64,000 bases of DNA from a bacterium (GTDB lineage: Bacteria; Fidelibacterota; Marinisomatia; Marinisomatales; JAHJCW01), in contig JANQGY010000013.1 in NCBI GenBank assembly GCA_028282845.1, forward strand, positions 197,350 to 261,349, given 5' to 3'. Within the stretch, counting starts at the first letter, position 1. Each line of letters begins with the position of its first letter. Under the pieces are notes generated by a model. It was not told where the DNA came from and did not search any database. It saw only the letters and a list, made by a program, of their open reading frames with translations. Made by a program: the position numbers and the translations under genes. Positions 19,236 to 63,946 of this stretch are shown piece by piece.

Positions 19236-19667
19236 ATGTATGACATTAACTATCTTGCCATATTAGTTTCGGCAATTGTCTTTTTTGCAATCGGCGCTTT
19301 ATGGTACAGCGATTCACTGTTCGGCAAATCCTGGCGCGCAGCGATGAGCAAGACCGATGAAGAGTTTGAAAAAGAACGTCAAGAGACCAATATGGGCAAA
19401 TCTTTTGGACTCATGTTCTTGGGTTCATTAATTATGGCTTTTGTTACTGCCCATCTCGTTGATATTATGGCAGTAGCATATCCTACGGCAACCAAGCTGA
19501 AATTAGGTCTTGTTAGTGGATTTTGGGTATGGTTTGGTTATATTGCTGCTTACGTGTTAACATCAGTTGCCTTTGAAAACAGGTCTTGGAAATATTATTT
19601 CATCAACACCGGATATTGGTTAGTAGGTGTTCTGATAATGGGAACAATATTGACTGCCTGGAATTAG
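19236..19667 (+). CDS. DUF1761-like small membrane protein
   Basis: INYLAILVSAIVFFAIGALWYSDSLFGKSW N-terminus and 4 predicted TM helices. Confidence 0.65.
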   Translation: MYDINYLAILVSAIVFFAIGALWYSDSLFGKSWRAAMSKTDEEFEKERQETNMGKSFGLMFLGSLIMAFVTAHLVDIMAVAYPTATKLKLGLVSGFWVWFGYIAAYVLTSVAFENRSWKYYFINTGYWLVGVLIMGTILTAWN

Positions 19668-19670
19668 CTT

Positions 19671-21582: not shown

Positions 21583-21590
21583 ATTAATAT

Positions 21591-21621
21591 AAAAAAAGCC
21601 GCTGAAAAGTACTTCAGCGGC
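21591..21621 (-). terminator. Rho-independent terminator downstream of the LysM gene
   Basis: On the minus strand, a gccgctgaa/ttcagcggc 9-bp stem with a 6-nt loop is followed by ttttttt. Confidence 0.8.
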
Positions 21622-21644
21622 TTCCAAAATAATACAATTATTAA

Positions 21645-22220
21645 TTATTCACATGGATCAAGATTTTTCCGCAATTGGAAAACCATGCCGGGGTAAATGA
21701 TTCCACCGTTACGGTCAATAATATCCTGATTGTCCATATAAATTATTATCCAAGCCAATTGGTCACCAAAAACCCTGCCGGCGAGATTCCATGGCGTATC
21801 ACCTTCTTCAATGGTGTAATTATAAAATTCAACCTGACAATCTTTGGCTACCGCGGCAGCTTTTAGTAATTGCAAAAATCTATAGGGATAGATCAGATCG
21901 GGATTATCGCCGATCATTTCTTTGTTATACTCATATATCTCCCGCCATTTACTCCAATCGCCTAATTCTTTGCGGGCGATTTTGGATAAATAATCACCAC
22001 GTTTGATCATGTATGGTTCTTCTACCATACCGGGTACAATAGTACCTTCACCGCGATCAACATTATAAGGTTCAACAACAATTCCTTCATCCTCAGCAAC
22101 AGGAGTAGTAGTTTCTTCAATTGCGGTATCATCCGGAACAGGCGCTGCTTCCGGCACGGCTTGTTTTGCACAAGATGCTAATAAAATGATTGCAATTAGA
22201 AAAAGTGAGATATTTTTCAT
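21645..22220 (-). CDS. Lipoprotein with two LysM-like domains
   Basis: Signal peptide with lipobox (LLASC). Two YxIxxGDxLxxIA-like segments (YMIKRGDYLSKIA, YTIEEGDTPWNLA). Confidence 0.7.
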   Translation of the reverse strand: MKNISLFLIAIILLASCAKQAVPEAAPVPDDTAIEETTTPVAEDEGIVVEPYNVDRGEGTIVPGMVEEPYMIKRGDYLSKIARKELGDWSKWREIYEYNKEMIGDNPDLIYPYRFLQLLKAAAVAKDCQVEFYNYTIEEGDTPWNLAGRVFGDQLAWIIIYMDNQDIIDRNGGIIYPGMVFQLRKNLDPCE

Positions 22221-22289
22221 AAACGTCCTCCGCGTTTTAACAATTATAAAATTTATTAAAGTTAAATATAAATGCGTGATAAATGATAA

Positions 22290-23783
22290 TTAATTTTGGG
22301 TGTATTCACCAAAAACACTGCGTAATGTGTTGGCAATTTCTCCAAGCGTGCAATTGTTCTTTAAACAATTGATGATCTGTGGAAATAAGTTGCCATCGCC
22401 TTTTGCGATTTTTTCCAGTCGTAATAAATTGTCTTCAACCGGCTTTTCATTGCGTAGTTTTTTAAATCTGTGTAGTGCTTTAATTTGATTTTTAGTTGCC
22501 TTTGGATCAATTTTAAGCAGTTCGGATTTTGTTGTGTCCTGTTCAATAAATTTGTTCACCCCAATCACCGTTTTATCATTTTGATCAACAGCCTTTTGGT
22601 ATTCGTAAGCGCTTTTAGCGATTTCGTTCTGTATCCAATTGTTTTCTATCGCTTTGACAGAACCGCCCATTTCATCAATTTGATTGATAATTTGTTGAGC
22701 TTCCTGAATCAAGTTATCGGTTAATTCCTCAACTACATAGCTGCCACCGAACGGATCGGGATGATCGGTAACCCCTGATTCATAAGCAATAATTTGCTGA
22801 GTCCTTAGTGCGAGTTTGGCTGATTCGTCAGTGGGAAGCGCTAATGCTTCATCCTTGCTGTTGGTGTGTAACGATTGTGTTCCGCCGAGAACCGACGACA
22901 TCGCTTGAATGGTTGTTCTGATAATATTATTATCAATCTGTTGGGCTGTCAGGGTGGAGCCTCCTGTTTGAGTATGAAAGCGACACAATTGAGCTTTAGT
23001 TTCAGTGACGTTGAATCTATCTTTCATAGTTGTAGCCCATAATTTTCGAGCGGCCCTGAATTTGGCAATTTCCTCTAAAAATCCGTTATGCGTGTTGAAA
23101 AAGAATGACAAGCGTTTCCCAAATGAATTAGGGTCTAAACCGGAATCAATTGCTGCTTGGACATAGGCAATCGCGTTGGAAAAAGTAAATGCCAGTTCCT
23201 GAGCTGCGGTGCTGCCGGCTTCGCGAATGTGATAACCAGAGATCGAGATAGTATTCCACTGCGGTAGATTATCGGCACAATAATCAAAGATATCAGTGAT
23301 AATGCGCATTGATTGTTTGGGCGGAAAAATGTAAGTACCGCGCGCCACGTATTCCTTCAAAATATCATTTTGGATTGTACCGCGTAGTTTGTCGGCTGAA
23401 ATTCCGTTTTTTTCTGCAACAACAATATACATTGCCAATAATATAATGGCAGTTGAATTAATGGTCATCGAAGTGGAAATTTTATCAAGGGGTATTTTAT
23501 TTAATAAGCGTTCCATATCCTCGATGGTTGATATTGGCACGCCGACACGCCCGACTTCACCTTCCGCCATAGGATGGTCAGAATCGTAACCGATTTGAGT
23601 CGGTAGATCGAAAGCCACCGAAAGGCCGGTCACTCCTTGTTCTAAAAGATAGCGATATCTTTTATTGGATTCCTCTGCAGATGTGTAGCCGGCATACTGA
23701 CGCATAGTCCAGAAGCGCTTCTTATACATGTCAGGATATATGCCGCGCGTAAAAGGGAATTCACCGGGTTTCGGTATCTTCAT
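22290..23783 (-). CDS. Methylmalonyl-CoA mutase family catalytic (substrate-binding barrel) subunit without a B12-binding domain
   Basis: [33 protein letters not shown] and [13 protein letters not shown] blocks. 497 aa, ending before the cobalamin domain. Confidence 0.9.
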
Positions 23784-27316: not shown

Positions 27317-27385
27317 TTATAATTCTAATTTTATAAGTTGGATCGTTTTTACCAAGATTTTGATGAAAAATTTGGAGGAAATAAT

Positions 27386-28165
27386 ATGAAAATTGGTGTA
27401 TTGGTTAAACAAGTAGCCGGTAGCGAATCACCTTTGCGGATTGATTCTGAAGCAAAATGGGTGGATGAAAGCGCTGTTGACTTTTCGATCAATGAAAGTG
27501 ATTCTTATGCTTTGGAGGAAGCTTTGCAAATAATAGAGCGTTCCGGCGGTGATGGGGAAGTGGTAGTTGTCAGTATGGGACCGGCGGGGCGAACACCAAA
27601 AGTAATTCGAGAGGCTTTGGCAAAAGGTGGGCATAGAGCGATTCATATTCAGGAGGAAGCTCCGTATGAAACTGATCCATTTATGATCGCTAGTATATTT
27701 GCTGAAGCGCTTAAGGATGAACAATTTGACCTAATACTTTCCGGATTACAATCCGATGACTTGAGTTCCGGACAAACCGGCGTTATTCTTGGGGAATTGC
27801 TTGGTATGTCCACCGCAACTCTGGTGATGGGAGTTGAAGTACAGGACGGTAATTTGAGAGCAAAGCGTGAATTGGAATCAGGTTGGTTTCAATGGGTAAC
27901 TTTACCATTCCCGGCCTGCATCACGATACAATCAGGATTGAATCAGCCACGTTATCCCTCGCTAAAAGGAATCATGGGAGCTAAGAAGAAGGAAATTAAA
28001 CCCGTTTCAAAGGCGGATTTGGTCGATGATTTAAAACCGCTGCAGGATTATTCCAATATGTATTTATTTAAAGCGGAGAAAAGTACCGAGATGATCGAAG
28101 GTTCGGCTGATGAAGTAGTTGATAAGCTGGCAGATATTTTTAAAAATAAAATAAAAGCTTTATAG
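27386..28165 (+). CDS. etfB: Electron transfer flavoprotein beta subunit
   Basis: MKIGVLVKQV start with ggagg RBS. ETF-beta pattern (NESDSYALEEAL, GLQSDD..SGQTG, PRYPSLKGIM). Confidence 0.92.
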   Translation: MKIGVLVKQVAGSESPLRIDSEAKWVDESAVDFSINESDSYALEEALQIIERSGGDGEVVVVSMGPAGRTPKVIREALAKGGHRAIHIQEEAPYETDPFMIASIFAEALKDEQFDLILSGLQSDDLSSGQTGVILGELLGMSTATLVMGVEVQDGNLRAKRELESGWFQWVTLPFPACITIQSGLNQPRYPSLKGIMGAKKKEIKPVSKADLVDDLKPLQDYSNMYLFKAEKSTEMIEGSADEVVDKLADIFKNKIKAL

Positions 28166-28173
28166 GAGTTGCC

Positions 28174-29145
28174 ATGGATATTTTAGTAGTTCTCGAAGGG
28201 GCAAATGGGGCAATCCACCGCATTAGTAAAGAAGCACTTGCAGCAGCGCAATTGTTGAGTAAAGATCTTGAACAGAAAATAAGTATCTTGGCGTTTGGTC
28301 AAAATGCCGAACAATTAGCCAATGAAGCAACGGGATTTAATGCTGAAGAAGTAGTGCTAATCAATGATGAAAAACTTAATAGTTATTCTGCCGATGGGTA
28401 TGCAGAAGCAATCATGCAGATTGTTGAAAAGGAAGCACCGCAATATGTGTTAACGGGGTATTCCTATTTGATAAGGGATTTTTTGCCGAAGGTTAGTGCC
28501 AGGTTACAAAAACCGTTGATCACGGATGTAATTTCCTATAAGAATGAAGGCGGCAAAATATTGTTCACTAAGCAGGTGTTGCATGGCAAATTAACTGTTG
28601 ATATTGAACCAAAAGTAACTGATTCGGTTATGGTCGCATTTCAATCAGCAGCCTACTCAGCCGATAATTTGATTAGCGGTTCGGCTAATATCAGAAATGT
28701 GGAGATTGAATTAAATGCTGATATGTTGAAAACCTCTTCAGAGGAGCCCTTCCAAGAGGAAACCGGTGGTGTGGATCTGACTTCGGCTGAAAAGATAATT
28801 TCCATCGGAAGAGGAATCGGCAAGGAAGAAAATATGCCCTTAGTGAAAGAACTTGCTGAGGTTTTGAAAGCCGAGATCGGCGCTTCACGCCCGATTGTTG
28901 ATGCCGGATGGTTACCAAGTTCACATCAGGTTGGTAGCTCCGGTCAGAGTGTTACACCCAATCTATATTTAGCATTAGGAATATCCGGTGCGATACAACA
29001 CGTGGTTGGTATGAAAGGTTCAAAGAATATCGTAGCGATCAATCGCGATGCCGACGCTCCAATATTTGAAATTGCAGATTACGGGGTCATCGGAGATATA
29101 GTTGAAATCATACCCAAATTGACTGAGGTAATTAAGAGCCAATAG
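28174..29145 (+). CDS. etfA: Electron transfer flavoprotein alpha subunit
   Basis: C-terminal FAD-binding signature (GASRPIVDAGW, QVGSSGQSV.P.LY.ALGISGAIQH, AINRDADAPIFE). Confidence 0.92.
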   Translation: MDILVVLEGANGAIHRISKEALAAAQLLSKDLEQKISILAFGQNAEQLANEATGFNAEEVVLINDEKLNSYSADGYAEAIMQIVEKEAPQYVLTGYSYLIRDFLPKVSARLQKPLITDVISYKNEGGKILFTKQVLHGKLTVDIEPKVTDSVMVAFQSAAYSADNLISGSANIRNVEIELNADMLKTSSEEPFQEETGGVDLTSAEKIISIGRGIGKEENMPLVKELAEVLKAEIGASRPIVDAGWLPSSHQVGSSGQSVTPNLYLALGISGAIQHVVGMKGSKNIVAINRDADAPIFEIADYGVIGDIVEIIPKLTEVIKSQ

Positions 29146-29260
29146 AAGCATTTTGCGGAAAAGTAAATAACAGTTTTATATACATAATCCGGCTTTTGCA
29201 AAACGGATGCTAACTTGTTATAGTTCTTATTGATTAACCGTTAAATGGAAAGTAATAGGA

Positions 29261-31339
29261 ATGATAAGCCAAATACTATTCGTCGGACTCCTAGCAAGCG
29301 GTATTGTTTTGTTTGCCAGACGAGTCAAACAAATTCGAACTAATATTCTTTTAGGAAAAGATTTAGATCGCACCGATCATCCGGTTGTAAGATGGAAAAC
29401 AATGTTCAAAGTTGCCCTCGGGCAAATAAAAATGGTCAAAAGGCCGGTTTCCGGAATATTACATATCATTGTTTATGCCGGTTTTATTATCGTCAACATT
29501 GAAATGTTAGAAATAGTTCTCGATGGAATTTTGGGAACGCATAGACTTTTTGCTCCGGTCGGGACTTTGTATAGTTTGTTAATCGGTAGTTTCGAAGTAA
29601 TCGCTTTGCTAGTAATCTTGGCTTGTGCCACTTTCTTAGTACGTAGAAACGTAGTCCGGATGAAGCGCTTCCATTCCAAGGAAATGACGGCTTGGCCTAA
29701 AACTGATGCCAACATAATTTTGGTTACCGAAATATTGCTAATGTCGGCATTTATTTTTATGAATGCGGCAGATATGTTGTTGCAAGATATTGATCCGGCA
29801 CATTATGCAAGTACCGGCACTTTTCCAATTAGCAGCGTTGTGCAGCCGTTACTCTTAGGTTTTAGCGAAAATGGATTAGTTCTGATTGAACGCGGCTTGT
29901 GGTGGTTTCATATAGTTGGGGTAATGGCTTTTTTAGTATATGTAACCTATTCCAAGCATTTCCATATTCTTTTGGCATTTCCGAATACTTATTACAGTAA
30001 TTTGGAGAACAGAGGGAAATTACCCGTTATGCCGGCCGTATTGAATGAGGTAAAGACAATGTTGGATCCGAATGCTGATCCCTATGCCGATTCAGGAACC
30101 GGCGATGAAGATGATGAAAATTTTGGCGCCAATGACGTACGGGATTTAACTTGGAAACAATTAATGGACGGTTATGCCTGTACCGAATGCGGACGTTGTA
30201 CATCGGTATGTCCGGTAAATATGACGGGTAAAGTGCTCTCCCCAAGAAAAATTTTGATGGATACACGTGATCGTTTGGAGGAAGTGGGCAAAAATATCAG
30301 ATCGAATAACGGGGAATTCGTCGACGATAAAAAATCATTATTATATACGTACATAACCGAAGAGGAACTGTGGGGTTGTACCACCTGCGTTGCTTGTGTG
30401 GAAGCTTGTCCGGTGTTAATTGATCCTCTGAGCACGATCATTGACTTGCGGCGATATTTGGTTTTATCTGAGGGGAAACCGCATTCTCAGGCTGCGGAAA
30501 GTTTGGAGAAAACAATGAATACCGGCAATCCTTGGGGCTATTCTCAAAGTGAGAGAACAAAATGGGCGACCGATGCGGGGCTTGATCTGCCGCTAATGTC
30601 TGAAAAGAAAGAAGCCGATGTTTTGTATTGGGTCGGATGTGCCGGTTCTTATGATCCTCGTAATCAACAGGTTTCTAAGGCTATGATCAAGATATTGGAA
30701 GCTGCCGAAGTGGATTATGCTGTTCTTGGAACAGAGGAATCATGTACAGGGGATTCAGCCCGGAGGCTTGGTGAAGAATATTTATTTGAGACAATGACAT
30801 TGCAAAATATTGAAACATTTAAAAAATATAAATTCAATAAGATTGTTGCTCCTTGTCCGCATTGTTTTCATACGATTGGAAATGAATATACCGATTTTGA
30901 GGTGAATTATAAGGTGCAGCATCATTCACAATTCATCGGAGAGTTGGTTGATTCCGGCAAATTGAACTTGAAAAAATATTATGATAATAAAGTAACTTAC
31001 CATGATCCTTGCTATTTGGGACGCCACAATAATGAATATGACGCTTCACGGAATATTATCAACGGTGTTCTGAAAAATGACAAGCTGATCGAGATGAAGC
31101 AGAATCGGAAAAATAGTTTTTGCTGCGGTGCCGGTGGTGGAAATATGTGGTATGACCTTGAAGGAGGAGACCGTATAAATTATGTTCGTTTTCAGGAAGC
31201 AATTGATACCGGTGCCGATGTAGTTGCCACCGCCTGCTCATTTTGTACTTTTATGATGGATGATGCCATGAAAGTTAAAGGCAAAGAAGATACCATGCAG
31301 GTATTGGATATTGCCGAAATGGTGGCAACGGCGTTATAA
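29261..31339 (+). CDS. Membrane-anchored Fe-S oxidoreductase (N-terminal multi-TM domain + 2x[4Fe-4S] + two CCG domains), EtfD/HdrD-like ETF-oxidising partner
   Basis: About 6 TM helices, then CTECGRCTSVCP and CTTCVACVEACP, then CCG-type motifs (CPHCFHT, DPCYLGRH, FCCGAGGG, ACSFC). It lies directly downstream of etfBA. Confidence 0.8.
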   Translation: MISQILFVGLLASGIVLFARRVKQIRTNILLGKDLDRTDHPVVRWKTMFKVALGQIKMVKRPVSGILHIIVYAGFIIVNIEMLEIVLDGILGTHRLFAPVGTLYSLLIGSFEVIALLVILACATFLVRRNVVRMKRFHSKEMTAWPKTDANIILVTEILLMSAFIFMNAADMLLQDIDPAHYASTGTFPISSVVQPLLLGFSENGLVLIERGLWWFHIVGVMAFLVYVTYSKHFHILLAFPNTYYSNLENRGKLPVMPAVLNEVKTMLDPNADPYADSGTGDEDDENFGANDVRDLTWKQLMDGYACTECGRCTSVCPVNMTGKVLSPRKILMDTRDRLEEVGKNIRSNNGEFVDDKKSLLYTYITEEELWGCTTCVACVEACPVLIDPLSTIIDLRRYLVLSEGKPHSQAAESLEKTMNTGNPWGYSQSERTKWATDAGLDLPLMSEKKEADVLYWVGCAGSYDPRNQQVSKAMIKILEAAEVDYAVLGTEESCTGDSARRLGEEYLFETMTLQNIETFKKYKFNKIVAPCPHCFHTIGNEYTDFEVNYKVQHHSQFIGELVDSGKLNLKKYYDNKVTYHDPCYLGRHNNEYDASRNIINGVLKNDKLIEMKQNRKNSFCCGAGGGNMWYDLEGGDRINYVRFQEAIDTGADVVATACSFCTFMMDDAMKVKGKEDTMQVLDIAEMVATAL

Positions 31340-44071: not shown

Positions 44072-44215
44072 CTATTTCTTAATCGGCTTTTTTACTTTGC
44101 GAACGCTGTTGCTAGCACATTTAGGACAAGCCCGTTCCATCGGCACTTTTCTATCGTAAGGTCCGGTAAATTCGTGTCCGCAACGTAAGCATTTAAAATC
44201 TACTATCTCAGCCAT
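44072..44215 (-). CDS. 47-aa zinc-ribbon protein (below the ORF-track size cutoff), last gene of the kor-hdr operon
   Basis: My translation: MAEIVDFKCLRCGHEFTGPYDRKVPMERACPKCASNSVRKVKKPIKK. CxxC-x17-CxxC. It starts 14 nt after the hdrA stop with a purine-rich gagag upstream. Confidence 0.6.
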   Translation of the reverse strand: MAEIVDFKCLRCGHEFTGPYDRKVPMERACPKCASNSVRKVKKPIKK

Positions 44216-44229: not shown

Positions 44230-46728
44230 CTATGCGCTTGGACTTATTCCGATATCGGGTTTATCGGTTTTGGGGATTACAGTTTTGGATTTCTTTTTAG
44301 CTTTTTTCGCCTCCGCTTTTTCGCGATCCTCTTTCAGCACTTTCATTGTCTGTTCAACCTCTTCTTTGGTAACCTCCTTGCGCATTTCCTCTAATTCCTT
44401 CATCGTCCGAGCCCATTTTTGTCCCTCGGCCGCGCTAATCCATTCAAGCTGTAAACGTTCGGGGCGTATTCCAAGCCGTTCGAGTTTGTCCCATAATTTT
44501 TCAACGCGTTTTTGCGTCCAACGATTAGCATCAATGTAATGGCAGTCAGCAAAATGGCAACCCGATACAAGCACAATTGGCGCCCCTTTTTCAAAAGCGT
44601 GCAATACAAACTCAGAGTCAACACGCCCGCTGCACATTGTCCGTATTATTCGTTGAGTTGTAGGATATTGCAAGCGCGATAATCCTGCCAAGTCTGCTCC
44701 GGCATATGAACACCAATTACAGGCGAATACCGTTATTGTATCCATGGGATTTTTTTCAAGCGAAGCATCAATTTGAGATATATATTGTGAGTCCTCAAAA
44801 TGCTTCATAGCAAGTGCATCAAAATTACATTCTGCTGCACAAGTACCGCAGCCTTTGCACATTGCTTCAATCACTTCTGCTTTAAGTCCGGCTTTGGCGT
44901 CGGCTCCGCGAATTGCATTAAACGGACATACATTCACGCATATTCCGCAAGATGTGCAAAGATCAGTGTAGCACTCCGAAGTAATTGCCTCAATATTTAT
45001 CATATCGGAATTAAGCAATACTTCCGAACGTGCCGCTGCTGCACTTGCCTGAGTTACACTGTCTTTCACATCTTTGGGGAACTCGGCACACCCGGCAAAG
45101 AAAACTCCGCCCGTTGGTGCATCAACCGGTTTCAATTTTGGATGCGATTCCATGAAAAAGCCATCTTCAGTTTTAGATAATGTCAGCAGTTTTTGAACTG
45201 CGCTACTATCACGTCGTGGAATTACTCCAACTGAAAGTACCACTAAATCAAAGTCATAATCTTTAACGGTATTCGCCACCGTGTCCTCAACAATCAGTTT
45301 TAGATCATTAGTTTTCGGATCCTCGAAAATTTCACCCGGTAAACCACGGATGTACTGAACACCCGCTTTTTTACTGCGAATGTACAGATCTTCGAATCCT
45401 TTGCCGAAAGCCCGGATATCCATATAGAAAACTGATATTTCAGTATCGGGATAATGATCTTTTAATAATAGACTATCCTTAACCGTGTTCATACAACAGA
45501 TATTGCTGCAATATGGGTTTCCAACTTCGGAATGCGAACGCGATCCAACACATTGAATAAAGGCAATTCGCTTTGGTACTTTATGATCGGTCGGTCGAAT
45601 AAAATGTCCTTCTGTTGGTCCACCCGCCGAAATCAGTCTCTCAAATTCCATGCTCGTAATAACGTTTTCGTATTGAGTATAACCGTATTCATCCATTTCT
45701 GTCGGATCGTATACATCCATTCCGGTGGCAACAATCACCGCACCAACGTCCAATTCGATTATCTCATCTTTCATATCGAAATCGATACATTCCTTTTCGC
45801 AAACATCGGCACATTTACCGCAGGCAATCGGATTATTTCCAAGACAGTCACCATCATTTAAGATATACACGGATGGGACGGCTTGCGGGAAAGGCATATA
45901 TATCGCTTTGCGGGATGAGAAACCTTGCTGAAATTCATCGGCTACAGCAACCGGACAAACCTTTTCACACTCGCCGCAGGCATTGCATAGGTCTTCATCA
46001 ACATAACGAGCCTTGCGGCGCACCTTTACTTTAAAGTTGCCAATATAACCGCTAACGTCCTCGACTTCGCTGTAAGTGTATAAATTAATATTGGGATGTC
46101 GACCGACATCCATCATTTTCGGTCCGAGTATTCATATGGAACAATCCATAGTGGGGTAAGTCTTGTCTAATGTAGCCATTAGCCCACCAATGGATGCCTC
46201 CTTCTCAACCAAATTAACTTGATAACCGGCGTCGGCAAGATCTAAAGCCGATTGAATACCGGCTACGCCACCGCCGATAACCAATACTTCCTTTTTCATT
46301 GGTACTTTGGATTCTATTTGTTCTTCAAGCAACCGCGCCCTTGCAACCGACATTCTGACCATGTCTTTAGCTTTGCTCGTGGCTCCATCATAATCATCTA
46401 AATGTGCCCAACTACAATGCTCACGGATATTGGTCATCTCCATTAAATAGGGATTCAAACCGGCTTCCTGAACACAGTTTCTGAAGGTTGGTTCATGCAT
46501 GCGCGGCGAGCAAGATGCCACAACTACTCTATTCAAGTTGTGTTCTTTTATATATTTTTTAATTTCCTGTTGTCCGGGTTCCGCACAAGTGTATTTGTTC
46601 ACCACCGAACAAGTTACATTCGGAAGAGTGGCAGCATAATCGGAAACCGCTTGGCAATCAAGCGATCCGGCAATATTGCGACCACACTCACAAACGAACA
46701 CACCTACGCGTAGATCGTTTTCACTCAT
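44230..46728 (-). CDS. hdrA: Heterodisulfide reductase subunit A-like flavoprotein fused to an MvhD domain; selenocysteine (UGA at 46132..46134) read-through joins two track ORFs
   Basis: Both ORFs are in the same frame. The junction reads [36 protein letters not shown], a contiguous HdrA motif. Also present: FAD motif [16 protein letters not shown], four CxxCxxCxxxCP clusters, and MvhD block [31 protein letters not shown]. Confidence 0.85.
46101..46124 (-). promoter_or_regulatory. Candidate bacterial SECIS hairpin downstream of the hdrA UGA
   Basis: gaccga-N12-tcggtc stem-loop starting 8 nt 3' of the UGA. Confidence 0.4.
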
Positions 46729-47907: not shown

Positions 47908-50219
47908 TATTTAATCTTCCTTGCATAATCATTCACAATCTCGATGAATTTCTCGGTGTTTTTGCCTGATACAGTCGCATATTCCAAACGATTCTTATCA
48001 TAGCCAAGCATATAAGCTATCTGCTGAACCTTGGCATAAGTTTCCGCAAACCGTTTTGCTCCAAATTCATAATGACATTCATCAGCAGCGCAGCCAACAA
48101 CTAATACACCGGCTGTATCTTTTTCCAATGCTTTTAAAATGAATGATGACTCGATCCTACCGGTACACATGGTTTGGATGAAGATCAAATTTGTGTCTCT
48201 TACTTTAATTTTTGAGAATTGCTCAAAATCCGCTCCATTCCAACTGCAGGAAAAAACCACAATAGATTTTTTATTCAGATCAATCGCCTGCAATTTGAAA
48301 TCCAGCCAATCAGAAGTGAATCTACCGGGTTGAATGACAGAAGAAGGACAAAGCGCAACACAGGTTCCACAACCGCGGCATAGATCAGGATCAATTTTTG
48401 ATATTTTGACCTCATCACCCATATCAATAAGCTGAATTGCATCATAATCACAGACGGTAACACAATCGCCGCAGCCACGGCAGAGACTTGCTGTAACTAG
48501 TGGAATATAACTATCAACCTCAATTGGAATGTCTTTTCCATTTTGTCCTTTAATAACAGCTTCCAATTTTCCATTTTTCAAGATCGTGTCGTCAAATTCT
48601 GATGGAAGTCTTAGAACATAATCATTTTGACCGTCTGAAGTGTGCACAACCGATAAACCTTTATTACATTCTGAAACACAAATAAAGCACTCATCGCAAG
48701 GACCGCAGCGTAAACATCTTTGAGCTTCTGCGATCGCTGTTTTTTCATCAAAACCGTATTCTACTTCGCTAAAATTCCCTTTCCGCTTAGTAACATTTTG
48801 CATTGGAATTTTTGCTCTTTTGATCTTGGGCTGAGTATTATAGTCAATTTTTATTTCAGCTTCAGTTGACTTGGAGCCATCTGATGTTGAGGTCAAATCT
48901 TCCCCGTTAATAAATTGTTCGATTGAACGAGCGGCAATATGTCCTTGTGCTATTGCATCAATTACCGTATTTGGACCGGTAACGGCATCGCCACCGGCAA
49001 ATACGCCGGGAATATTGGTTGCCATTGTCGATTCATCAGCCAATAATGTTTGCCATTTAGATATGTCTATTTCATGGTTTTTGGGCAAAAATGATAGATC
49101 AGGTTTTTGACTGATAGCAGGAATTATCACATCAGCATCAATAATAAATTCTGAATCTTTGATCGGAATTGGTTTGGCGCGACCACTTTCATCGGGTTTA
49201 CCAAGCTTCATCTTAACACACTCAAGTCCGGTTGCAGTGCCATTTTTACCAACGATTTTATTTGGAGCGGCAAGATAATGAATTTTGATGCCCTCTTTTT
49301 CGGCATCTTCTATTTCTTCGTCATTAGCGGGCATTTCATCTCGGGATCGGCGATAAGCAATGGTAACCTTTGAACCGAGTCTCAAAGCCGTTCGAGCAGC
49401 ATCAATTGCCGAATTTCCACCGCCGATTATTATTACATTTTCACCGGGTTTTTTAGCGGTGCCAAGGTTTACTGCGCGTAGAAAAGTCACCGCATCTAAA
49501 AAACCTTTAAATTCGTCTTCACCAGGTATACCTAGTTTTTTGCCAACATGGGCACCAATTGCTAAATAGACGGCATCAAAATCTTTCAATAATTTATTAT
49601 AGGCAGCTTTTCCGGATATTTTTTTGCTTGTTATAATTTTAACACCAATATTTTTAATGTAGCCGATCTCTATATCTAAAATGTCGCGTGGCATGCGGTA
49701 ACTTGGAATTCCTGCAATCAGCATTCCGCCGGGTTCCGATAGTTCTTCAAATATTGTTACATTGAAGCCACTCTTGGCAAGATCGTGTGCAGCAGTTAGA
49801 CCGGCGGGTCCCGAGCCGATTATAGCAATTTTCTCTGTTCTTTTTCCGGCAGTCTTTCCCGGTTTTGGAATGGGATTCTTCAACTCGTAGTCGGCTACGA
49901 ATCTTTTTAAGGCACGTATTGCAACCGGAGCATCTATTTGGTTGCGGTTACAATAACTTTCACAGGGATGTGTACAGACTCTACCGCAAATTCCCGGTAA
50001 TGGATTCTTTTCACGAACCACATGCAAAGCTTCATGAAATTTTCCTGCCGCAATCAATGAAACATAGGCTTTAACATTAACGCCTGCCGGACAGGCCTCC
50101 ATACAAGGTGAAGGATCAACAATTCCAATTGGATAGAACACATTCGGTTTATCCGAAAAGGAAACGGTATTCTTATGTTTCCTAATAAAATTTTTAAAGT
50201 TTGATTCGGTAGTTGGCAT
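47907..50219 (-). CDS. GltD/NfnB-like NAD(P)H-binding flavoprotein fused to a 2x[4Fe-4S] ferredoxin and an MvhD domain
   Basis: N-terminus CMEACPAGVNV, PLPGICGRVCTHPCE and IAIIGSGPAGLTAAHDLA; second dinucleotide site VIIIGGGNSAIDAA; CRGCGDCVTVC and CRGCGTCVALCP; MvhD block VFSCSWNGAD..CTGRI..VVGCAADECHY. Confidence 0.8.
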   Translation of the reverse strand: MPTTESNFKNFIRKHKNTVSFSDKPNVFYPIGIVDPSPCMEACPAGVNVKAYVSLIAAGKFHEALHVVREKNPLPGICGRVCTHPCESYCNRNQIDAPVAIRALKRFVADYELKNPIPKPGKTAGKRTEKIAIIGSGPAGLTAAHDLAKSGFNVTIFEELSEPGGMLIAGIPSYRMPRDILDIEIGYIKNIGVKIITSKKISGKAAYNKLLKDFDAVYLAIGAHVGKKLGIPGEDEFKGFLDAVTFLRAVNLGTAKKPGENVIIIGGGNSAIDAARTALRLGSKVTIAYRRSRDEMPANDEEIEDAEKEGIKIHYLAAPNKIVGKNGTATGLECVKMKLGKPDESGRAKPIPIKDSEFIIDADVIIPAISQKPDLSFLPKNHEIDISKWQTLLADESTMATNIPGVFAGGDAVTGPNTVIDAIAQGHIAARSIEQFINGEDLTSTSDGSKSTEAEIKIDYNTQPKIKRAKIPMQNVTKRKGNFSEVEYGFDEKTAIAEAQRCLRCGPCDECFICVSECNKGLSVVHTSDGQNDYVLRLPSEFDDTILKNGKLEAVIKGQNGKDIPIEVDSYIPLVTASLCRGCGDCVTVCDYDAIQLIDMGDEVKISKIDPDLCRGCGTCVALCPSSVIQPGRFTSDWLDFKLQAIDLNKKSIVVFSCSWNGADFEQFSKIKVRDTNLIFIQTMCTGRIESSFILKALEKDTAGVLVVGCAADECHYEFGAKRFAETYAKVQQIAYMLGYDKNRLEYATVSGKNTEKFIEIVNDYARKIK

Positions 50220-50755
50220 TAATTTGTTAATTCTTTTCCGTAAGTGTAGCCTCTTTCGAGGGCTTCAATATTTTTATCGATAAATCTATCCGGCACCGAT
50301 CCGGGTAGTGCTTTCTTCATTGCATCAATACTTACAACTCCGGTTATCGCCGTAAAAAATCCGACCATCACAACATTGGCAAAAATACGGTTGCCCATTT
50401 CCTCGGCAATTCGTGTAGCCGGGATGGAGAATAATTTTACATCCTTCCGTTTGGTCTTTGGTTTTACGAGGTCGGTATCGGTCAATACTATACTTCCTTT
50501 TTTCGGATCACCGATGAATTTCTCATAAGCTTCCTGTGACATAGCTACCAATATCTCCGGTGTGACAATGTAAGGGTACAATACAGCATTGCTATCAATC
50601 ACAACTTGAGCAGAACAAGCACCGCCGCGTGCTTCGGGTCCAAAACTTTGTGTGAGTGTGGCAAATTTACTGTCAAATAATGATGCAGCTTTTCCGATCA
50701 GCATTCCTGATTTAATTATTCCTTGACCGCCAAATCCTGAAAATCTAATGTCCAT
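50219..50755 (-). CDS. korG: 2-oxoacid:ferredoxin oxidoreductase gamma subunit
   Basis: MDIRFSGFGGQGII start motif. The stop overlaps the start of the downstream GltD-like gene by 1 nt (TAATG). Confidence 0.88.
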   Translation of the reverse strand: MDIRFSGFGGQGIIKSGMLIGKAASLFDSKFATLTQSFGPEARGGACSAQVVIDSNAVLYPYIVTPEILVAMSQEAYEKFIGDPKKGSIVLTDTDLVKPKTKRKDVKLFSIPATRIAEEMGNRIFANVVMVGFFTAITGVVSIDAMKKALPGSVPDRFIDKNIEALERGYTYGKELTN

Positions 50756-51656
50756 TTGGTCCTCTATACGGTATATATTTGTCACCTAATTTTTTAGAGA
50801 GGAATTGATCTCTATTGGTATAAAAATCAGGTTTTTCTTTATCAATAAATTTTCCTACCACTATTTCTTTTTGATAATCAATATCAATATCCCGGGTATC
50901 TGCTCCGTGTTGTATTTTTGCGCTGTTATGGTAGAAGCGCATTAGGTCTAAACCGGAGCCGAGTCGATTACGCCTCGCGTAGAGAGTAGGGCAAGGCGAT
51001 ACAACTTCAATAAATGAGAAGCCCGGTTTAAGCAATGCTTCAGCTATTGATTTGGTAGTTCTGCGAATATGTAGAGCCGTCCAGCGTGCTACATAAACTG
51101 CACCACTGGATTCAGCAAGATAAGGCAAATTAAAGGGGAACTCATAAGCCCCAAATGGAGCGGTGGAAGCATTTGCCTCTTCCGGTGTGGTTGGTCCGGC
51201 TTGACCACCCGTCATGGCATAATTGAAATTATTAATACAAATAATTGTAAGATTCATATTGCGCCGGGCAGCATGTATAAAATGATTTCCACCGATAGCT
51301 GCAATATCTCCGTCTCCGCTTATCACAACAACCTTAAGCTCAGGATTACCAAGAGCCAGTCCGGTTGCAAATGGTACTGCGCGTCCGTGTGTAGAGTGAA
51401 ATGAATCCAATCTTAAATAACCCGCCGCACGTCCTGAGCAGCCAATACCGGAAACGACCGATACCTTATTACGATCCAAACCTGACTTTTGTAATCCCGC
51501 AATAAAAGCAGTTATAACTGTACCAATTCCGCAGGTCGAGCACCAAATATGCGGTAATCGCTCGGTGCGTAAAAAGTCAGTCATTGGATGTTGCAGTTTA
51601 TCAGGAGCTTGGGGTATCTTTAAAGTACTTGTAGTTGGTGCTGAAATTTCGCTCAT
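50745..51656 (-). CDS. korB: 2-oxoacid:ferredoxin oxidoreductase beta (TPP-binding) subunit
   Basis: WCSTCGIG, GIGCSGR, GDGD..AIGGNH TPP motif and NNFNYAMTGGQ. Confidence 0.9.
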   Translation of the reverse strand: MSEISAPTTSTLKIPQAPDKLQHPMTDFLRTERLPHIWCSTCGIGTVITAFIAGLQKSGLDRNKVSVVSGIGCSGRAAGYLRLDSFHSTHGRAVPFATGLALGNPELKVVVISGDGDIAAIGGNHFIHAARRNMNLTIICINNFNYAMTGGQAGPTTPEEANASTAPFGAYEFPFNLPYLAESSGAVYVARWTALHIRRTTKSIAEALLKPGFSFIEVVSPCPTLYARRNRLGSGLDLMRFYHNSAKIQHGADTRDIDIDYQKEIVVGKFIDKEKPDFYTNRDQFLSKKLGDKYIPYRGPNGH

Positions 51657-52813
51657 TTTACACCTTTCTTGATTGCTTTCAAAATATCATTCGGGTCATG
51701 GACCCATCCTCCGGCATGCGGTACACCAATGGTAGTTGCTTTGCCTGCTGCGCATCTTTCAACTTCAATTGAGACTTGTCCCAAATTAATTTCAGGGACA
51801 ATAAATGCTTTAACCTTTGAACTTAATTTTTTAATAAGTTTTTCAGGAAATGGCCAAACCGTGATTAGGCGCATAATACCAACTTTCATTCCTGCTGCAC
51901 GGGCATCCTGAACTGCCTTTAGGGCAACACGTGAAGTAATTCCATAAGAAATAACAATGACTTCCGCATCATCAATCTGATCGGTTTCGATCATACGAAT
52001 ATCTTCTTCATTCTTGATTATTTTATCGACCAAATGATTAACGTTCTTATCCTGAGCATCAGCATTGATAACTGGATAACCACGCTCATCATGAGTAAGT
52101 CCGGTAATATGAATGTTATATCCGTCTCCGGCTTTGATCATTGGTCCGACGGAATTATCGCCATTGAATTTGTATGGTCTATAATCTTCCTTTTTCCCTT
52201 TATAAAAATTGCGCGGAACGATGTCAATCTTATCAGCTTCAGGAATGACAACTTTCTCCGTCATGTGTCCTACGCACTCATCCATCATAAATAGAACAGG
52301 TACTCTGTATTTTTCCGAAAGATTGAAAGCCTTCACCGTAAGATCAAAACATTCCTGCGGTGAATTGGGTGAAATGGCAATTATTTCATAGTCGCCGTGC
52401 GATCCCCAACGCGCTTGCATCATATCGGCTTGACCGGTAAGGGTCGGCAATCCTGTTGAAGGTCCGCCGCGCTGTACATTCACTACAACACAGGGTGTCT
52501 CCATCATTATCGCTAAACCTAAATTCTCCATCATTAGCGAGAAGCCCGGTCCGGATGTTACCGTCATGGATTTTGGTCCCGCCCAAGCCGCACCGACTAC
52601 CGCTGCCATGGATGCAAGTTCATCTTCCATTTGGATAAACATGCCGCCGACTTTTGGGAAACGTTCTGCCATGCGTTCGGCTACTTCCGTCGAGGGGGTA
52701 ATTGGATAACCTGCTAAGAATCGGCAGCCAGCGGCAATGGCACCTTCGGCGCAGGCGTGGTCACCATCAATATAATGACTTCCGGTGGCAACACCAATTG
52801 GATCAGCTTTCAT
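51653..52813 (-). CDS. korA: 2-oxoacid:ferredoxin oxidoreductase alpha subunit
   Basis: GDHACAEGAIAAGCRF.AGYPITPSTE, TVTSGPGFSLM and RGGPSTGLPT. Confidence 0.9.
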   Translation of the reverse strand: MKADPIGVATGSHYIDGDHACAEGAIAAGCRFLAGYPITPSTEVAERMAERFPKVGGMFIQMEDELASMAAVVGAAWAGPKSMTVTSGPGFSLMMENLGLAIMMETPCVVVNVQRGGPSTGLPTLTGQADMMQARWGSHGDYEIIAISPNSPQECFDLTVKAFNLSEKYRVPVLFMMDECVGHMTEKVVIPEADKIDIVPRNFYKGKKEDYRPYKFNGDNSVGPMIKAGDGYNIHITGLTHDERGYPVINADAQDKNVNHLVDKIIKNEEDIRMIETDQIDDAEVIVISYGITSRVALKAVQDARAAGMKVGIMRLITVWPFPEKLIKKLSSKVKAFIVPEINLGQVSIEVERCAAGKATTIGVPHAGGWVHDPNDILKAIKKGVK

Positions 52814-53115
52814 ACTTTTGCCTCTTTCTTTAATACATCATTCACATCAGGGTTGATTGGTTTGCCCTCAACAACAAATATCGCAAATTCAGGACAGATC
52901 ATTTCACATAACGTACAATTAACACAGGCATTATGCTTCAGCACATTTGGATAATGATAACCTTTGCGGTTGAAATCTGTGGATAATTCCAATACGTCCC
53001 GAGGACAATATTCAACGCAAAATTCGCAGCCTTTGCACTGTTCAACGTCAATCTGAACATCGCCGTGCGGGATTTCAATTTTGTTTATATCGAGCGGTAC
53101 GCGCCAATAATTCAT
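52810..53115 (-). CDS. korD: 2-oxoacid:ferredoxin oxidoreductase delta (2x[4Fe-4S] ferredoxin) subunit
   Basis: CKGCEFCVEYCP and CVNCTLCEMICP. Confidence 0.85.
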   Translation of the reverse strand: MNYWRVPLDINKIEIPHGDVQIDVEQCKGCEFCVEYCPRDVLELSTDFNRKGYHYPNVLKHNACVNCTLCEMICPEFAIFVVEGKPINPDVNDVLKKEAKV

Positions 53116-60182: not shown

Positions 60183-60914
60183 TTAGGAATCACTTTTAAG
60201 ACGATCAATTTCGGCTTTTATTTCTTCAATAATTTCCTCATTGACAATTACTTTTTTATCTCCTTCCCGAGTAGAAAATATAACAAATACTTTACCACCG
60301 TATTTTTCCTCAAAATCGATGAAACTTTTACTCATTCTTTCGGTTATTTTATAATTGGCAAAATTCGCATTAGCTGTAATAGGTTTGATTTGAATACCAA
60401 ATGCTTTGTCACCAACTTTTCCAATGTAATCAATATCTCCTGCGTGGTCAAGTTCAGGGTCACTTTCTACAAACTCAACATTAGAAAATAATTTGACAAG
60501 TATGTCACTGATTACGGATTTTTCGAGGAGAAAACCATCATATGTTCTAACAATTGTCAACTCATATATGTAGTCTTTACAATCTTGTAGTGTTAAATCT
60601 TTGAAAGCTGCCGTCCATTCAGGGATTACTATTTCTGTTATCTTTGAATATAGTCTTTCGCCTAGTTCATCCAAAGTCTTTTTTGTTACTTTTATAGGTT
60701 CTTTCGTTTTAGTATATGCTTCTTCAAAATAATATTGTTCCCATTCTTCTATAACTTTGGGTTGACATTTTCTTATTAATGCCATTACTTCACCAACTTT
60801 GGGTGGTCTAGTTAGCTGATAATTACTTGCAGTATAGTTAAGGACTCTTTCTTTCTTCCCAAATGGTTTAGCATATTTTTTTATATCTTTTTTTGTCATT
60901 TTATATAGATTCAA
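60183..60914 (-). CDS. Putative type II restriction endonuclease (PD-(D/E)XK-like)
   Basis: Candidate motif GDIDY-x12-IQIKP (D160/D162..Q175-x-K177). Last gene of the operon with the DNA methyltransferase. Low GC. Confidence 0.45.
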   Translation of the reverse strand: MNLYKMTKKDIKKYAKPFGKKERVLNYTASNYQLTRPPKVGEVMALIRKCQPKVIEEWEQYYFEEAYTKTKEPIKVTKKTLDELGERLYSKITEIVIPEWTAAFKDLTLQDCKDYIYELTIVRTYDGFLLEKSVISDILVKLFSNVEFVESDPELDHAGDIDYIGKVGDKAFGIQIKPITANANFANYKITERMSKSFIDFEEKYGGKVFVIFSTREGDKKVIVNEEIIEEIKAEIDRLKSDS

Positions 60915-61257
60915 TTCTTAAATCTGGTAATGTAGTTGGATTTTGTTGATTTGGAAGATTATTCCAGCCGTTGCGCATACTTTGCCTCCTGTTTAATATA
61001 CTTTCAGCTCTACTTTGTAAAGAATTAAGATTTTCCTCAATTTCAGTTAAATTTCTTATTATATAGAAACCTCTATTACAACTGCCTATAAGATTACCTC
61101 TATTAATTGCGTTACGAATTACATCTCTCATTTCAACTTCAACGCCGCGATCAGAAATTCCAAAAAATACTGCTAATTCGGTTGCAGTTATTGAATTTTC
61201 GCGACCTATGTGACCATTATTATTCAGATACAATATCAATTCATGAATTTCTGGCAT
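60901..61257 (-). CDS. Small putative winged-helix DNA-binding protein between the methyltransferase and nuclease genes
   Basis: 118 aa. ITATELAVFFGISDRGVEVEMRDVIRNAI resembles an HTH. It overlaps both neighbours (17 and 14 nt). Confidence 0.4.
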   Translation of the reverse strand: MPEIHELILYLNNNGHIGRENSITATELAVFFGISDRGVEVEMRDVIRNAINRGNLIGSCNRGFYIIRNLTEIEENLNSLQSRAESILNRRQSMRNGWNNLPNQQNPTTLPDLRIESI

Positions 61258-62545
61258 AATTATCCTCCAGATTAATAAATTTATTTAAATATTTAAAATC
61301 AAATTCTTTGTCAACATTTACTAATCCATTTTTTATTAAATGGGCATTGACAAAAGTTTTATTTTTTAAATAAACGTACCCTAGAATATTGTTATTTGAG
61401 TCAAATTTTATTTCATCATGCTTTAGAAAAATTCTCTGATTTTTAAATTTTTGTTTTAGAAATTCTATCGCTTGACCATTTTTGGTTGAATCTGTCTTTA
61501 CTCCTATCAGGCGTATTTTCAAACCATTTTCTAAGGCAATAAGCTCCGGTGAAATTATTTCCTTTACTTTGTGGTATTCTTCTCTGTGTTGTGAATTTTT
61601 ATCAATCTTTGATCCATATTGTAATTTTTTTGGGTCAACCTTTTTATTAAAAGTGTGATTATCTTTAAAAATATAGGGTAGTTTTTGAATCCTATCTTTG
61701 AAGTTTGTATCTTTTGATTTTTGTTCAATGAATTTGTATTCGGAGGGGAATATTTCGTTTTGATTTATGTCTAACTTATCTTTGATAAAAGGAATAAAAT
61801 CTTTATTAATTTCATATCCCCAAGAATTTCTTTCTAAATTTTTAGCTGCTAAGGAAGTTGTTCCACTACCCAAAAATGGATCTAAAATTGTATCACCAAC
61901 GAATGAAAACATTTTAATTAATCTTTTTGGTAATTCCTCAGGGAACATTGCAATATGTCCATCCTGCTTTGCTCCATTAAAATTCCAATGTCCTGAGAAA
62001 TATTTCTTCCATTCTTCAGTTGTCAATTTTGATTGTTCCTTTAATATTGGATCAGGTTTAATCGGAGTACCAAGTTTTTTTAAAATTAAAATGAATTCGT
62101 AGTCGATTGATACAATACCATTTTTTGGGAATGGAAAACTTCCCATAATGCTGGCTCCACCAGTTGTATTCATTGTAGTTTGCTTTTGCCAAATAATTGC
62201 ACCCATATAATCAAAGCCAATAGATTCACAGAATTTGATTATTTCTGTTCTTATGGGAATTACTTTATATCTTCCATAATAAACTGCGCGGGCAAATTGG
62301 TCACCGATATTGACACATAACCTACTTCCATTTTTTAGCACTCTATGACATTCACTCCATACAAGATTTAAGTTATTGATATAATCCTCATAACTATCAT
62401 CAAAGCCTATTTGATTTTCAGCTTCATAATCTTTTAATTGCCAATAAGGAGGTGAAGTAATAATTAAATCAATTGTCCGATCTTTTAGCTCAGACATATT
62501 TCGGCAATCGCCTGTTATTATTGTATGGATTGTTTTAATGTTCAA
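61241..62545 (-). CDS. Beta-class N4/N6 DNA methyltransferase with a C-terminal degenerate SNase-like (OB-fold) domain
   Basis: Motif IV DLIITSPPY precedes motif I DPFLGSGTT. The C-terminus IRLIGVKTDS...ILGYVYL...NAHLIKNGLVNV resembles thermonuclease but lacks the DAPE catalytic residues. Confidence 0.88.
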   Translation of the reverse strand: MNIKTIHTIITGDCRNMSELKDRTIDLIITSPPYWQLKDYEAENQIGFDDSYEDYINNLNLVWSECHRVLKNGSRLCVNIGDQFARAVYYGRYKVIPIRTEIIKFCESIGFDYMGAIIWQKQTTMNTTGGASIMGSFPFPKNGIVSIDYEFILILKKLGTPIKPDPILKEQSKLTTEEWKKYFSGHWNFNGAKQDGHIAMFPEELPKRLIKMFSFVGDTILDPFLGSGTTSLAAKNLERNSWGYEINKDFIPFIKDKLDINQNEIFPSEYKFIEQKSKDTNFKDRIQKLPYIFKDNHTFNKKVDPKKLQYGSKIDKNSQHREEYHKVKEIISPELIALENGLKIRLIGVKTDSTKNGQAIEFLKQKFKNQRIFLKHDEIKFDSNNNILGYVYLKNKTFVNAHLIKNGLVNVDKEFDFKYLNKFINLEDNYARNS

Positions 62546-62896: not shown

Positions 62897-63946
62897 TTAA
62901 TTAACTGAAATTATATTTTTATTCTTAGCAATTATCTCTCCGATAATCACTGCTTTTATATCTGATAATTTGTTGAACTCATTAATATATTCTTCCGCTT
63001 TTTCGGGTGCAAGCGATATTAAAAGTCCACCGGAGGTTTGCGCATCGGCGCATAGCAATTTATCTATTTCGCTGATATTCTTCGAAAAGGCTACCTTATC
63101 TTTGATAAAATTGAAATTCCGTTTGGTGCCGCCGGGTAAAATACCTTTTTCGGCGGTTGCTTTTACGGTTGGTAAAAATGGCAAATCAGCATAATTAATA
63201 TTTGCCGATACGTTGCTGGCCTGACACATTTCCGCTAAATGTCCGAGCAGTCCGAAACCGGTTACATCGGTAGCGGCGTTCACGCCGACACTTTGCGTCA
63301 CTTCAGCCGCTAATTTATTTAGTGTTGCCATTGATTTGGCAGATGCTTGTACGGCTTTGGAATCAGCCGCCCCGCGCTTTACCGCCGTGGCGATGATGCC
63401 GGTGCCGATCGGTTTAGTAAGGATTAACTTATCGCCAACTTTGGCGGTACTATTGGTAATTAATTTAGCTTCATCAATTTCGCCGGTTACAACCAAGCCG
63501 TATTTCGGTTCGGGATCGTCAACACTATGTCCGCCAACGATCGAAATCCCCGCCTCTTCCGCTTTATCTATTCCGCCCTGCAGTATTTTGGACAGGTCGG
63601 ATTTGGGCAGTGTATTGATCGGAAAGCCGATGATATTTAGGGCAAATAATGGTTTGGCGCCCATAGCATAAATATCGGATAATGAATTAGCGGCAGCAAT
63701 TTGACCGAAAATGTAGGGATCGTCATCAATCGGTGTGAAAAAATCAACGGTTTGCACTAATAATCGTCCATCGCCGAGGCGCACTACGGCGGCGTCATCT
63801 TTGTCATCGTAACCGACAAGGATGCGTTCATCACGCTTTGACTTAAGGTTACTCAATACTTGAGCAAGGTCCTCCGGACCGATTTTGCAAGCTCAGCCCG
63901 AACCGTGTGTAAGCGTAGTTAAACGTATTTTTTCTTTTTTGTCCAT
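62897..63946 (-). CDS. selD: Selenide, water dikinase (selenophosphate synthetase) SelD, selenocysteine-containing (UGA at 63893..63895)
   Basis: Extending the track ORF upstream in frame gives MDKKEKIRLTTLTHGSG-U-ACKIGPEDLAQVLSNLK..., the SelD glycine-rich active-site loop with U at the Cys/Sec position. The rest is AIR-synthase-like (DDAAVV, VQTVDFFTP, GGHSVDD). Confidence 0.9.
63864..63888 (-). promoter_or_regulatory. Candidate bacterial SECIS hairpin downstream of the selD UGA
   Basis: gcaa-aatc-ggtcc-gga-ggacc-ttgc begins 4 nt after the UGA. The apical loop contains GG. Confidence 0.5.

Follow-up and report, generated by a model that had tools for sequence, protein, structure and literature searches.

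HdrA, the A subunit of heterodisulfide reductase, is a known selenoprotein. It ranked fourth in frequency among bacterial selenoprotein families in a 2006 survey (PMC1794560), and a review table gives its selenocysteine (Sec, U) motif as CxxU (PMC9312934). In a 2026 cryo-electron microscopy structure, HdrA of Methanococcus maripaludis carries Sec197 (U197) at the Cys197 position, and this residue may be part of a Cys-Sec redox pair situated between cluster A3 and flavin adenine dinucleotide (FAD) (PMC13518236); Cys197 of HdrA provides a ligand to the partner protomer's N-terminal [4Fe-4S] cluster (PMC9012536). Bacterial Sec-containing HdrA has been reported from Syntrophobacter, Syntrophus, Desulfotalea, Moorella, Carboxydothermus and others, in glpC-hdrA-frhD-frhG-frhA hydrogenase-type operons of Deltaproteobacteria and Clostridia (Zhang et al. 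2006, PMC1794560). A form fused to MvhD, HdrA2, belongs to HdrA2B2C2 of Methanosarcina acetivorans, a heterodisulfide reductase that bifurcates electrons and works with ferredoxin or F420H2 (PMC5296606); the word selenocysteine is absent from that paper, which defined HdrA2. Here we describe a gene of this fused type, hdrA2, in a 64,000-nt stretch of DNA (hereafter the window; contig JANQGY010000013.1, positions 197,350 to 261,349, assembly GCA_028282845.1) whose host lineage is Marinimicrobia/Fidelibacterota (SAR406). Its minus-strand segment 44230..46728 is best read as one gene for an 832-aa HdrA-MvhD protein of the HdrA2 subclass, in which residue 199, encoded by an in-frame UGA, is predicted to be Sec; on the sequence evidence set out below, we put the probability of this reading at about 0.92. 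The gene joins a well-known selenoprotein family, and its proposed recoding mechanism is the standard bacterial one; a preliminary description of this DNA had called HdrA an established member of archaeal (Methanococcus/Methanocaldococcus) and deltaproteobacterial selenoproteomes, and by the survey and the review cited above the family is well established in bacteria and archaea alike.

Compared with HdrA of the Methanococcales (Sec197 in M. maripaludis; Cys197 in Methanothermococcus thermolithotrophicus, HdrABC-MvhAGD structure 5ODC), the product of hdrA2 shows the same CxxU motif, Sec column and fold, but it is bacterial and fused to MvhD, and its partners are a GltD-like flavoprotein and a fused HdrC/B-like protein instead of a [NiFe] hydrogenase. 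Moreover, the selenocysteine insertion sequence (SECIS) of archaea sits within the 3′ untranslated region (PMC10778597), whereas the hairpin proposed for this role in hdrA2 lies inside the reading frame just past the UGA. The bacterial cases of Zhang et al. likewise have a bacterial-type SECIS and a Sec-type SelD alongside; the present locus differs from them in its Marinimicrobia host, in being of the HdrA2 fusion type, and in adjoining a 2-oxoacid:ferredoxin oxidoreductase operon and tricarboxylic acid (TCA)-cycle genes rather than hydrogenase genes. With HdrA2 of M. acetivorans it shares the HdrA-MvhD fusion architecture, and a partner of HdrB/C-like type lies adjacent, but the HdrB- and HdrC-like parts are here fused in one 379-aa protein, and the likely electron donor would be NAD(P)H, via the GltD-like protein, and not F420H2.

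The minus-strand open reading frames (ORFs) 46132..46728 (198 aa) and 44230..46116 (628 aa) lie in one frame and are separated by TGA (46134..46132) and the five codons ATA CTC GGA CCG AAA, after which ATG ATG follows; the strand around the UGA reads ...ACT ATG GAT TGT TCC ATA TGA ATA CTC GGA CCG AAA ATG ATG GAT GTC GGT CGA CAT CCC.... Reading through gives a product of 832 aa with the UGA as residue 199; the coordinates, the shared frame and the read-through peptide are all present as the preliminary description had them. With U replaced by C for protein alignment, the fused product matches HdrA of M. thermolithotrophicus (5odc_A) with E = 4e-246 in phmmer (query 6-655, chain 4-648), and the alignment runs unbroken across the UGA, with fold and domain order in agreement over 650 residues and the cysteine pattern of the N-terminal domain preserved. 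The homology thus takes in the whole of HdrA: the N-terminal Fe-S domain, the FAD/thioredoxin-reductase-like domain, and the ferredoxin domains, both inserted and C-terminal. The C-terminal part matches MvhD (5odc_D) with E = 7.8e-39, and the whole fused sequence scores 1188.9 bits against the NCBIfam model NF040770 for HdrA2 (cut-off 1100), covering profile positions 1-776 of 777. The UGA column is the second Cys of DCSIC, that is, Cys197 in 5odc_A numbering, and it holds TGT or TGC in Cys-type homologs; the placement of the UGA in the Cys/Sec column of DCSxC, which the preliminary description had proposed to check by aligning the 832-aa fusion to Cys- and Sec-type HdrA, is borne out by this alignment to a Cys-type HdrA. 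The motif C-S-I-U also fits the CxxU of HdrA selenoproteins. In the window, whose G+C content is 39%, TGA terminates 11 of the 49 long ORFs, and the standard genetic code therefore applies. An alternative code in which UGA is a sense codon was rejected on this ground and because no other real gene has an in-frame TGA. A scan of the window for further selenoprotein genes, looking for in-frame TGA in a redox-type context, returned only noise in antisense or out-of-frame stretches.

To see how the UGA is distributed among relatives, we compared the 80 best loci out of 185,579 species genomes, and 47 classifiable loci from a metagenome scan seeded with a Cys-type Chloroflexota protein. The Sec column holds TGA in 77 of the 80 genome loci, TGC in one and TGT in one, with one left unmatched by the codon pattern; in the metagenome loci it holds TGA in 16 and TGT or TGC in 31. 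Neither TAA nor TAG occurs in this column among the genome and metagenome loci examined, and the coding sequence is conserved on both flanks of the TGA in the compared loci. The closest genomic loci (80-89% protein identity) belong to metagenome-assembled and single-cell genomes of Candidatus Neomarinimicrobiota/Marinimicrobia/Fidelibacterota, and the TGA-type loci as a whole cover more than 10 bacterial phyla, with Marinimicrobia, Zixibacteria, KSB1/Zhuqueibacterota, Calditrichota, Ignavibacteria, WOR-3, Stahlbacteria, Krumholzibacteriota, Eisenbacteria, Nitrospinae, Terriglobales, Anaerolineae and others among the taxa represented. In the 91 distinct Sec forms, the codons +1 to +5 after the UGA encode I-L-G-P-K with 100% amino-acid identity, and their third bases vary (codon entropy 1.0-1.8 bits). 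Fixed amino acids with variable third bases indicate that this stretch is translated and under purifying selection.

The minimum-energy fold of the 60 nt downstream of the UGA is an 18-nt hairpin, GGAUGUC-GGUC-GACAUCC (-10.2 kcal/mol), which begins 20 nt past the UGA and has its apical loop 27 nt past it, inside the range of 16-37 nt given for the apical loop of bacterial SECIS elements (PMC10778597). The codons +8 to +12 (D-V-G-R-H) read GAT GTC GGT CGA CAT in essentially every one of the 91 Sec forms, with an entropy of 0-0.5 bits, while the codons flanking them show 1-2.2 bits; in 29 distinct Cys forms the DVGRH codons vary freely (1.0-2.2 bits) for the same peptide. The 91 Sec forms have 6 distinct 18-mers at the hairpin, whereas the 29 Cys forms have 22, and the mean hairpin energy is -9.1 kcal/mol in the former and -2.0 kcal/mol in the latter. 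Synonymous sites are thus frozen in Sec forms and free in Cys forms, and the structure is under selection only where the codon is UGA. In an alignment of 72 Sec-form sequences the pairing holds in 99.4% of cells, and the changes are limited to 12 wobble changes (U-A to U-G eight times, G-C to G-U four times) and a single compensatory one, from U-A to C-G in locus L053, at the cost of a Val-to-Ala replacement. The apical loop, which has the conserved G (GU) of bacterial SECIS elements, is GGUC in 90 of the 91 Sec forms and GGUA in the remaining one. For comparison we folded the SECIS of Escherichia coli fdhF (minimal upper stem-loop), whose sequence was checked against 5,419 E. coli genomes and found at 100% identity inside fdhF; its apical loop is GGUC, identical to that of hdrA2. 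The hdrA2 hairpin differs from it in a spacer of 20 nt, in a perfect 7-bp helix closed by C-G, and in having neither a bulged U nor a conserved extended lower helix. These results suggest that the hairpin GGAUGUC-GGUC-GACAUCC is likely the SECIS of hdrA2.

Following the established bacterial pathway, this in-frame hairpin would serve as the SECIS, and SelB with Sec-tRNA(Sec) would bind the GGUC loop and, competing with release factor 2, deliver Sec to the A site of the ribosome; the selenium donor would be supplied via the selD gene of the window. Judging from the literature on HdrA, Sec199 would take the place of Cys197 of the CxxC in the thioredoxin-reductase-like domain, and it could either ligate the N-terminal [4Fe-4S] cluster of the other protomer or join with a Cys in a redox pair placed between this cluster and the bifurcating FAD.

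Other pairings around the UGA were considered. The preliminary description had pointed to a stem-loop, gaccga-N12-tcggtc, which does exist and does start at the 8th base past the TGA; its proposed role as a SECIS did not hold up, for it is not conserved, and its two wobble positions disrupt pairing in 45-52% of Sec forms. These two synonymous positions, in its 5′ arm, vary freely and are unpaired in 32/71 and 37/71 sequences, 83% of cells pair with no covariation, and its loop would begin just 14 nt past the UGA. It also overlaps the conserved GGAUGUC-GGUC-GACAUCC hairpin, and the two are mutually exclusive. On either side of the UGA the bases are fixed (context 46131..46137): the codon -1 is AUA in 89/91 Sec forms and in 21/29 Cys forms, and the base 3′ of the UGA is A in 91/91 Sec forms (Ile, AUH), as against G (Val) in 24/29 Cys forms. 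A hairpin UAUGGA-UUGU-UCCAUA, which ends at the AUA before the UGA, was rejected as the cause of the invariant AUA: its pair with the invariant A is kept in just 19% of Sec forms, and its other pairs follow from fixed amino acids. The fixed bases flanking the Sec codon may bear, as sequence context, on how SelB and release factor 2 compete.

It is also evident that the window encodes a second protein of this kind, as the preliminary description had stated in naming a Sec-type SelD. The selD product (selenophosphate synthetase) has AIRS domains, and its in-frame TGA (63895..63893) stands in the context MDKKEKIRLTTLTHGSG-U-ACK (GSG-U-ACK), which fits the UxxK given for SelD (PMC9312934). With U replaced by C, its N-terminus scores 169.6 bits against TIGR00476, for which the cut-off is 125. 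A hairpin GGUCC-GGA-GGACC (63880..63868) begins 12 nt past this UGA, with its loop 17 nt past it. As a second and independent UGA with a hairpin, selD supports the recoding of hdrA2.

Several observations weigh against this conclusion. The genes selA and selB and a tRNA-Sec were not found in the 64-kb window, in the 10 kb beyond selD (locus L140, an extension obtained by exact protein look-ups) or at the other loci, about 74 kb of this genome having been read. A Pfam search of the large ORFs of the window gave no SelA and no SelB, no tRNA of any kind is present in the window, and ARAGORN detected no tRNA-Sec in any of the 140 loci. The fold energy downstream of the UGA is ordinary (z = -0.36, range -0.36 to -0.68) and by itself gives no discrimination. 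The hairpin shows mostly invariance and weak covariation, shuffled alignments equaling the observed score in 64 of 500 trials; the formal covariation is weak because the hairpin is nearly invariant. At 20 nt, the spacer exceeds that of E. coli fdhF, which has 11 nt. Finally, Rfam gave no match, either for the whole window at the gathering threshold or for 46040..46170 at an E-value threshold, where the single hit was a chance S4-leader (E = 0.28). To our knowledge Rfam holds no general bacterial SECIS model, and this absence therefore weighs little.

Could the gene then be truly split, with translation stopping at the UGA and restarting at the ATG five codons on, and the 198-aa and 628-aa pieces assembling noncovalently? 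The ATG-ATG pair five codons past the TGA would allow it, public gene callers do model two pieces, and tandem or split HdrA arrangements are known in other organisms (PMC9012536, PMC1794560). The conservation of ILGPK with variable third bases in 91 sequences is unexpected for an untranslated spacer, however, and it counts against a pseudogene or an assembly error as well. Moreover, the break would fall inside the FAD-binding thioredoxin-reductase-like domain, exactly at the conserved Cys, the break codon is always TGA, and the downstream hairpin is present only where the codon is TGA (apart from the near-intact copy at one Cys-type locus described below). We thus consider a split gene very improbable. 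The hairpin by itself would be compatible with a UGA read without selenium, for example by a near-cognate tRNA-Trp or by Cys insertion, if it slowed the ribosome or blocked release factor 2; stimulatory hairpins are known from other systems, and the failure to see selA, selB and selC in about 74 kb of this genome would fit such read-through. But every non-TGA homolog has Cys in this column, where Sec has been documented in HdrA (PMC13518236, PMC9312934). The GGUC loop, moreover, is of the SelB type, as in E. coli fdhF, and stands at a suitable distance from the UGA (PMC10778597), and the genome encodes a SelD that is itself of the Sec type. These points leave read-through without selenium a very slight chance. 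That the TGA is a pseudogene mutation, or a TGC or TGT misread in sequencing or assembly, would require a change of one base only, and the window does derive from a metagenome-assembled genome; against this, the TGA recurs at 93 loci that were assembled independently and come from many phyla and studies, the conserved coding sequence on its two flanks being intact, and the cluster of the 198-aa fragment alone has 95 members. This explanation is effectively refuted. Selenocysteine insertion at UGA199 is thus the best explanation.

The preliminary description had expected automated annotation to split the gene, and it does so: public collections list the 198-aa and 628-aa pieces as separate proteins. 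Members of the 198-aa cluster are named "heterodisulfide reductase subunit A", the NCBI name of the second piece is "hydrogenase iron-sulfur subunit, partial", and the closest relatives in protein searches (86-96% identity) are all 627-628 aa long and cut at the same place. Because public gene calls split hdrA2, metabolic reconstructions of Marinimicrobia, Zixibacteria, KSB1, Calditrichota and others would misread an intact and probably central electron-bifurcating enzyme. A Sec residue in hdrA2 would also imply a selenium requirement in an abundant marine lineage; our literature search found no paper linking Marinimicrobia with selenoproteins. The 91 Sec and 29 Cys forms amount to a natural experiment, which confines the likely functional SECIS to an 18-nt element whose loop is GGUC and corrects the choice of the hairpin that stands out most by eye. 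In its mechanism the case is ordinary, since HdrA is among the commonest prokaryotic selenoprotein families and gene callers routinely miss such recoding; its value is somewhat greater for annotation practice and for the selenium ecology of abundant uncultured lineages.

To explore how Sec and Cys forms are related, we built a neighbor-joining tree of 119 sequences. In this tree, which is without support values, a large all-Sec clade includes the window sequence, and its sister is a mostly-Cys clade of the Chloroflexota type with the Sec forms L126 and L087 near its base; more distant Cys forms lie outside both clades. Four metagenome Sec forms (L087, L112, L115 and L126) nest among Cys-type Chloroflexota-like HdrA2. 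They are 79-82% identical to the Cys form P0008, have the identical hairpin and carry Thr for the second Met (KMTDVGRH). The presence of these Sec forms among Cys types suggests that Sec and Cys have been interchanged within one clade. Locus L114, a Cys type with TGC, retains a near-intact hairpin, GGACGUCGGGCGACAUCC (L114:1594 and the next 50 nt; -8.2 kcal/mol), perhaps the fossil of a SECIS in a gene where Sec gave way to Cys recently. The tree is suggestive only: one origin of Sec, with later losses to Cys and decay of the SECIS, would fit it, and independent gains are equally parsimonious on it. That Sec, with one frozen 18-nt SECIS and an invariant A-UGA-A, is the ancestral and dominant state of an HdrA2 clade of more than 10 phyla, with the Cys forms as secondary losses, is a tentative proposal to which we give rather less than even odds. 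If it were true, abundant uncultured lineages, Marinimicrobia/SAR406 among them, would have a central electron-bifurcating enzyme that depends on selenium, a dependence systematically hidden by split annotation.

The positions of hdrA2, its parts and its neighbors are collected in Table 1.

Table 1. Location of hdrA2, its proposed recoding elements, neighboring genes and selD in the window
Feature	Coordinates	Strand	Evidence or remark
hdrA2, complete coding sequence as read here (HdrA fused to MvhD), 832 aa, in-frame UGA	44230..46728	-	stop TAG 44232..44230
UGA, predicted selenocysteine, CxxU motif C196-S-I-U199	46132..46134	-	aligned with Cys197 of M. thermolithotrophicus HdrA
Spacer from UGA to hairpin, 20 nt, encodes I-L-G-P-K-M-M	46112..46131	-	conservation of +1 to +5
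Proposed bacterial SECIS, 7-bp hairpin GGAUGUC-[GGUC]-GACAUCC, encodes (M)DVGRH(P)	46094..46111	-	minimum-energy fold and comparative data
MvhD ([2Fe-2S]) domain, C-terminal fusion to HdrA, residues 665-779	44392..44736	-	5odc_D match
Zinc-ribbon ORF, CxxC...CxxC, 47 aa, directly downstream of hdrA2	44072..44215	-	translation
Fused HdrC-like (two [4Fe-4S]) and HdrB-like (CCG) protein, 379 aa	46768..47907	-	Pfam CCG 8.9e-28, Fer4_8
GltD/NfnB-like NAD(P)H-binding flavoprotein fused to a second MvhD domain, 770 aa	47907..50219	-	Pyr_redox_2, Fer4_20, FlpD
2-oxoacid:ferredoxin oxidoreductase, four subunits	53115..50219	-	
selD (selenophosphate synthetase), itself a predicted selenoprotein, UGA at residue 18	62897..63946	-	AIRS and AIRS_C domains

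Along the minus strand the order is 2-oxoacid:ferredoxin oxidoreductase, GltD-like/MvhD protein, HdrC/B-like protein, hdrA2, zinc-ribbon ORF, and citrate synthase with malate dehydrogenase, and the same core gene order is found at a Cys-type Chloroflexota locus. The HdrC/B-like gene lies upstream of hdrA2 in 63 of 81 loci, and the zinc-ribbon ORF lies downstream in 62 of 81, in several phyla. The 770-aa GltD-like protein scores 550.9 bits against NF009410 (cut-off 516), and it is the probable electron-input module; the 379-aa protein scores far below the equivalog cut-offs for HdrB and HdrC. From this gene context, HdrA2 together with the HdrC/B-like and GltD-like/MvhD proteins would most likely form a flavin-based electron-bifurcating NAD(P)H:ferredoxin/disulfide oxidoreductase. 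We infer that CoM-S-S-CoB, the heterodisulfide of coenzymes M and B, is an unlikely substrate for it in a bacterium.

Both the GltD-like/MvhD and the HdrC/B-like proteins give partial, sub-threshold matches to the NCBIfam model NF045663 "diclust_near_Sec", which NCBI named for adjoining selenoprotein genes. The sequence of the 47-aa zinc-ribbon ORF is MAEIVDFKCLRCGHEF...CPKCASNSVRKVKKPIKK, below the 50-aa size of the ORF list. Elsewhere in the window, 27338..31339 on the plus strand carries probable EtfB and EtfA, recognized by eye from their translation starts, and then a 692-aa iron-sulfur/CCG protein (HdrD/GlpC-like); this all-cysteine set, free of in-frame TGA, would be the window's second electron-transfer module related to Hdr. 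Organic-acid genes are densely grouped in 9200..23783, namely those for a citrate/sulfate symporter, citrate lyase alpha, aconitase, PrpD and methylmalonyl-CoA mutase, with SufB nearby. Together with the citrate synthase and malate dehydrogenase genes adjoining hdrA2, they suggest a tie of the Hdr module to carbon flow of the TCA-cycle and propionate type. The minus-strand block 60183..62545, which lies between selD and a tetR gene, codes for a MjaI-like restriction endonuclease and for an N4/N6 DNA methylase with a fused SNase domain. It may be a variable insertion, since breaks in independent Logan contigs of the same organism fall to either side of it.

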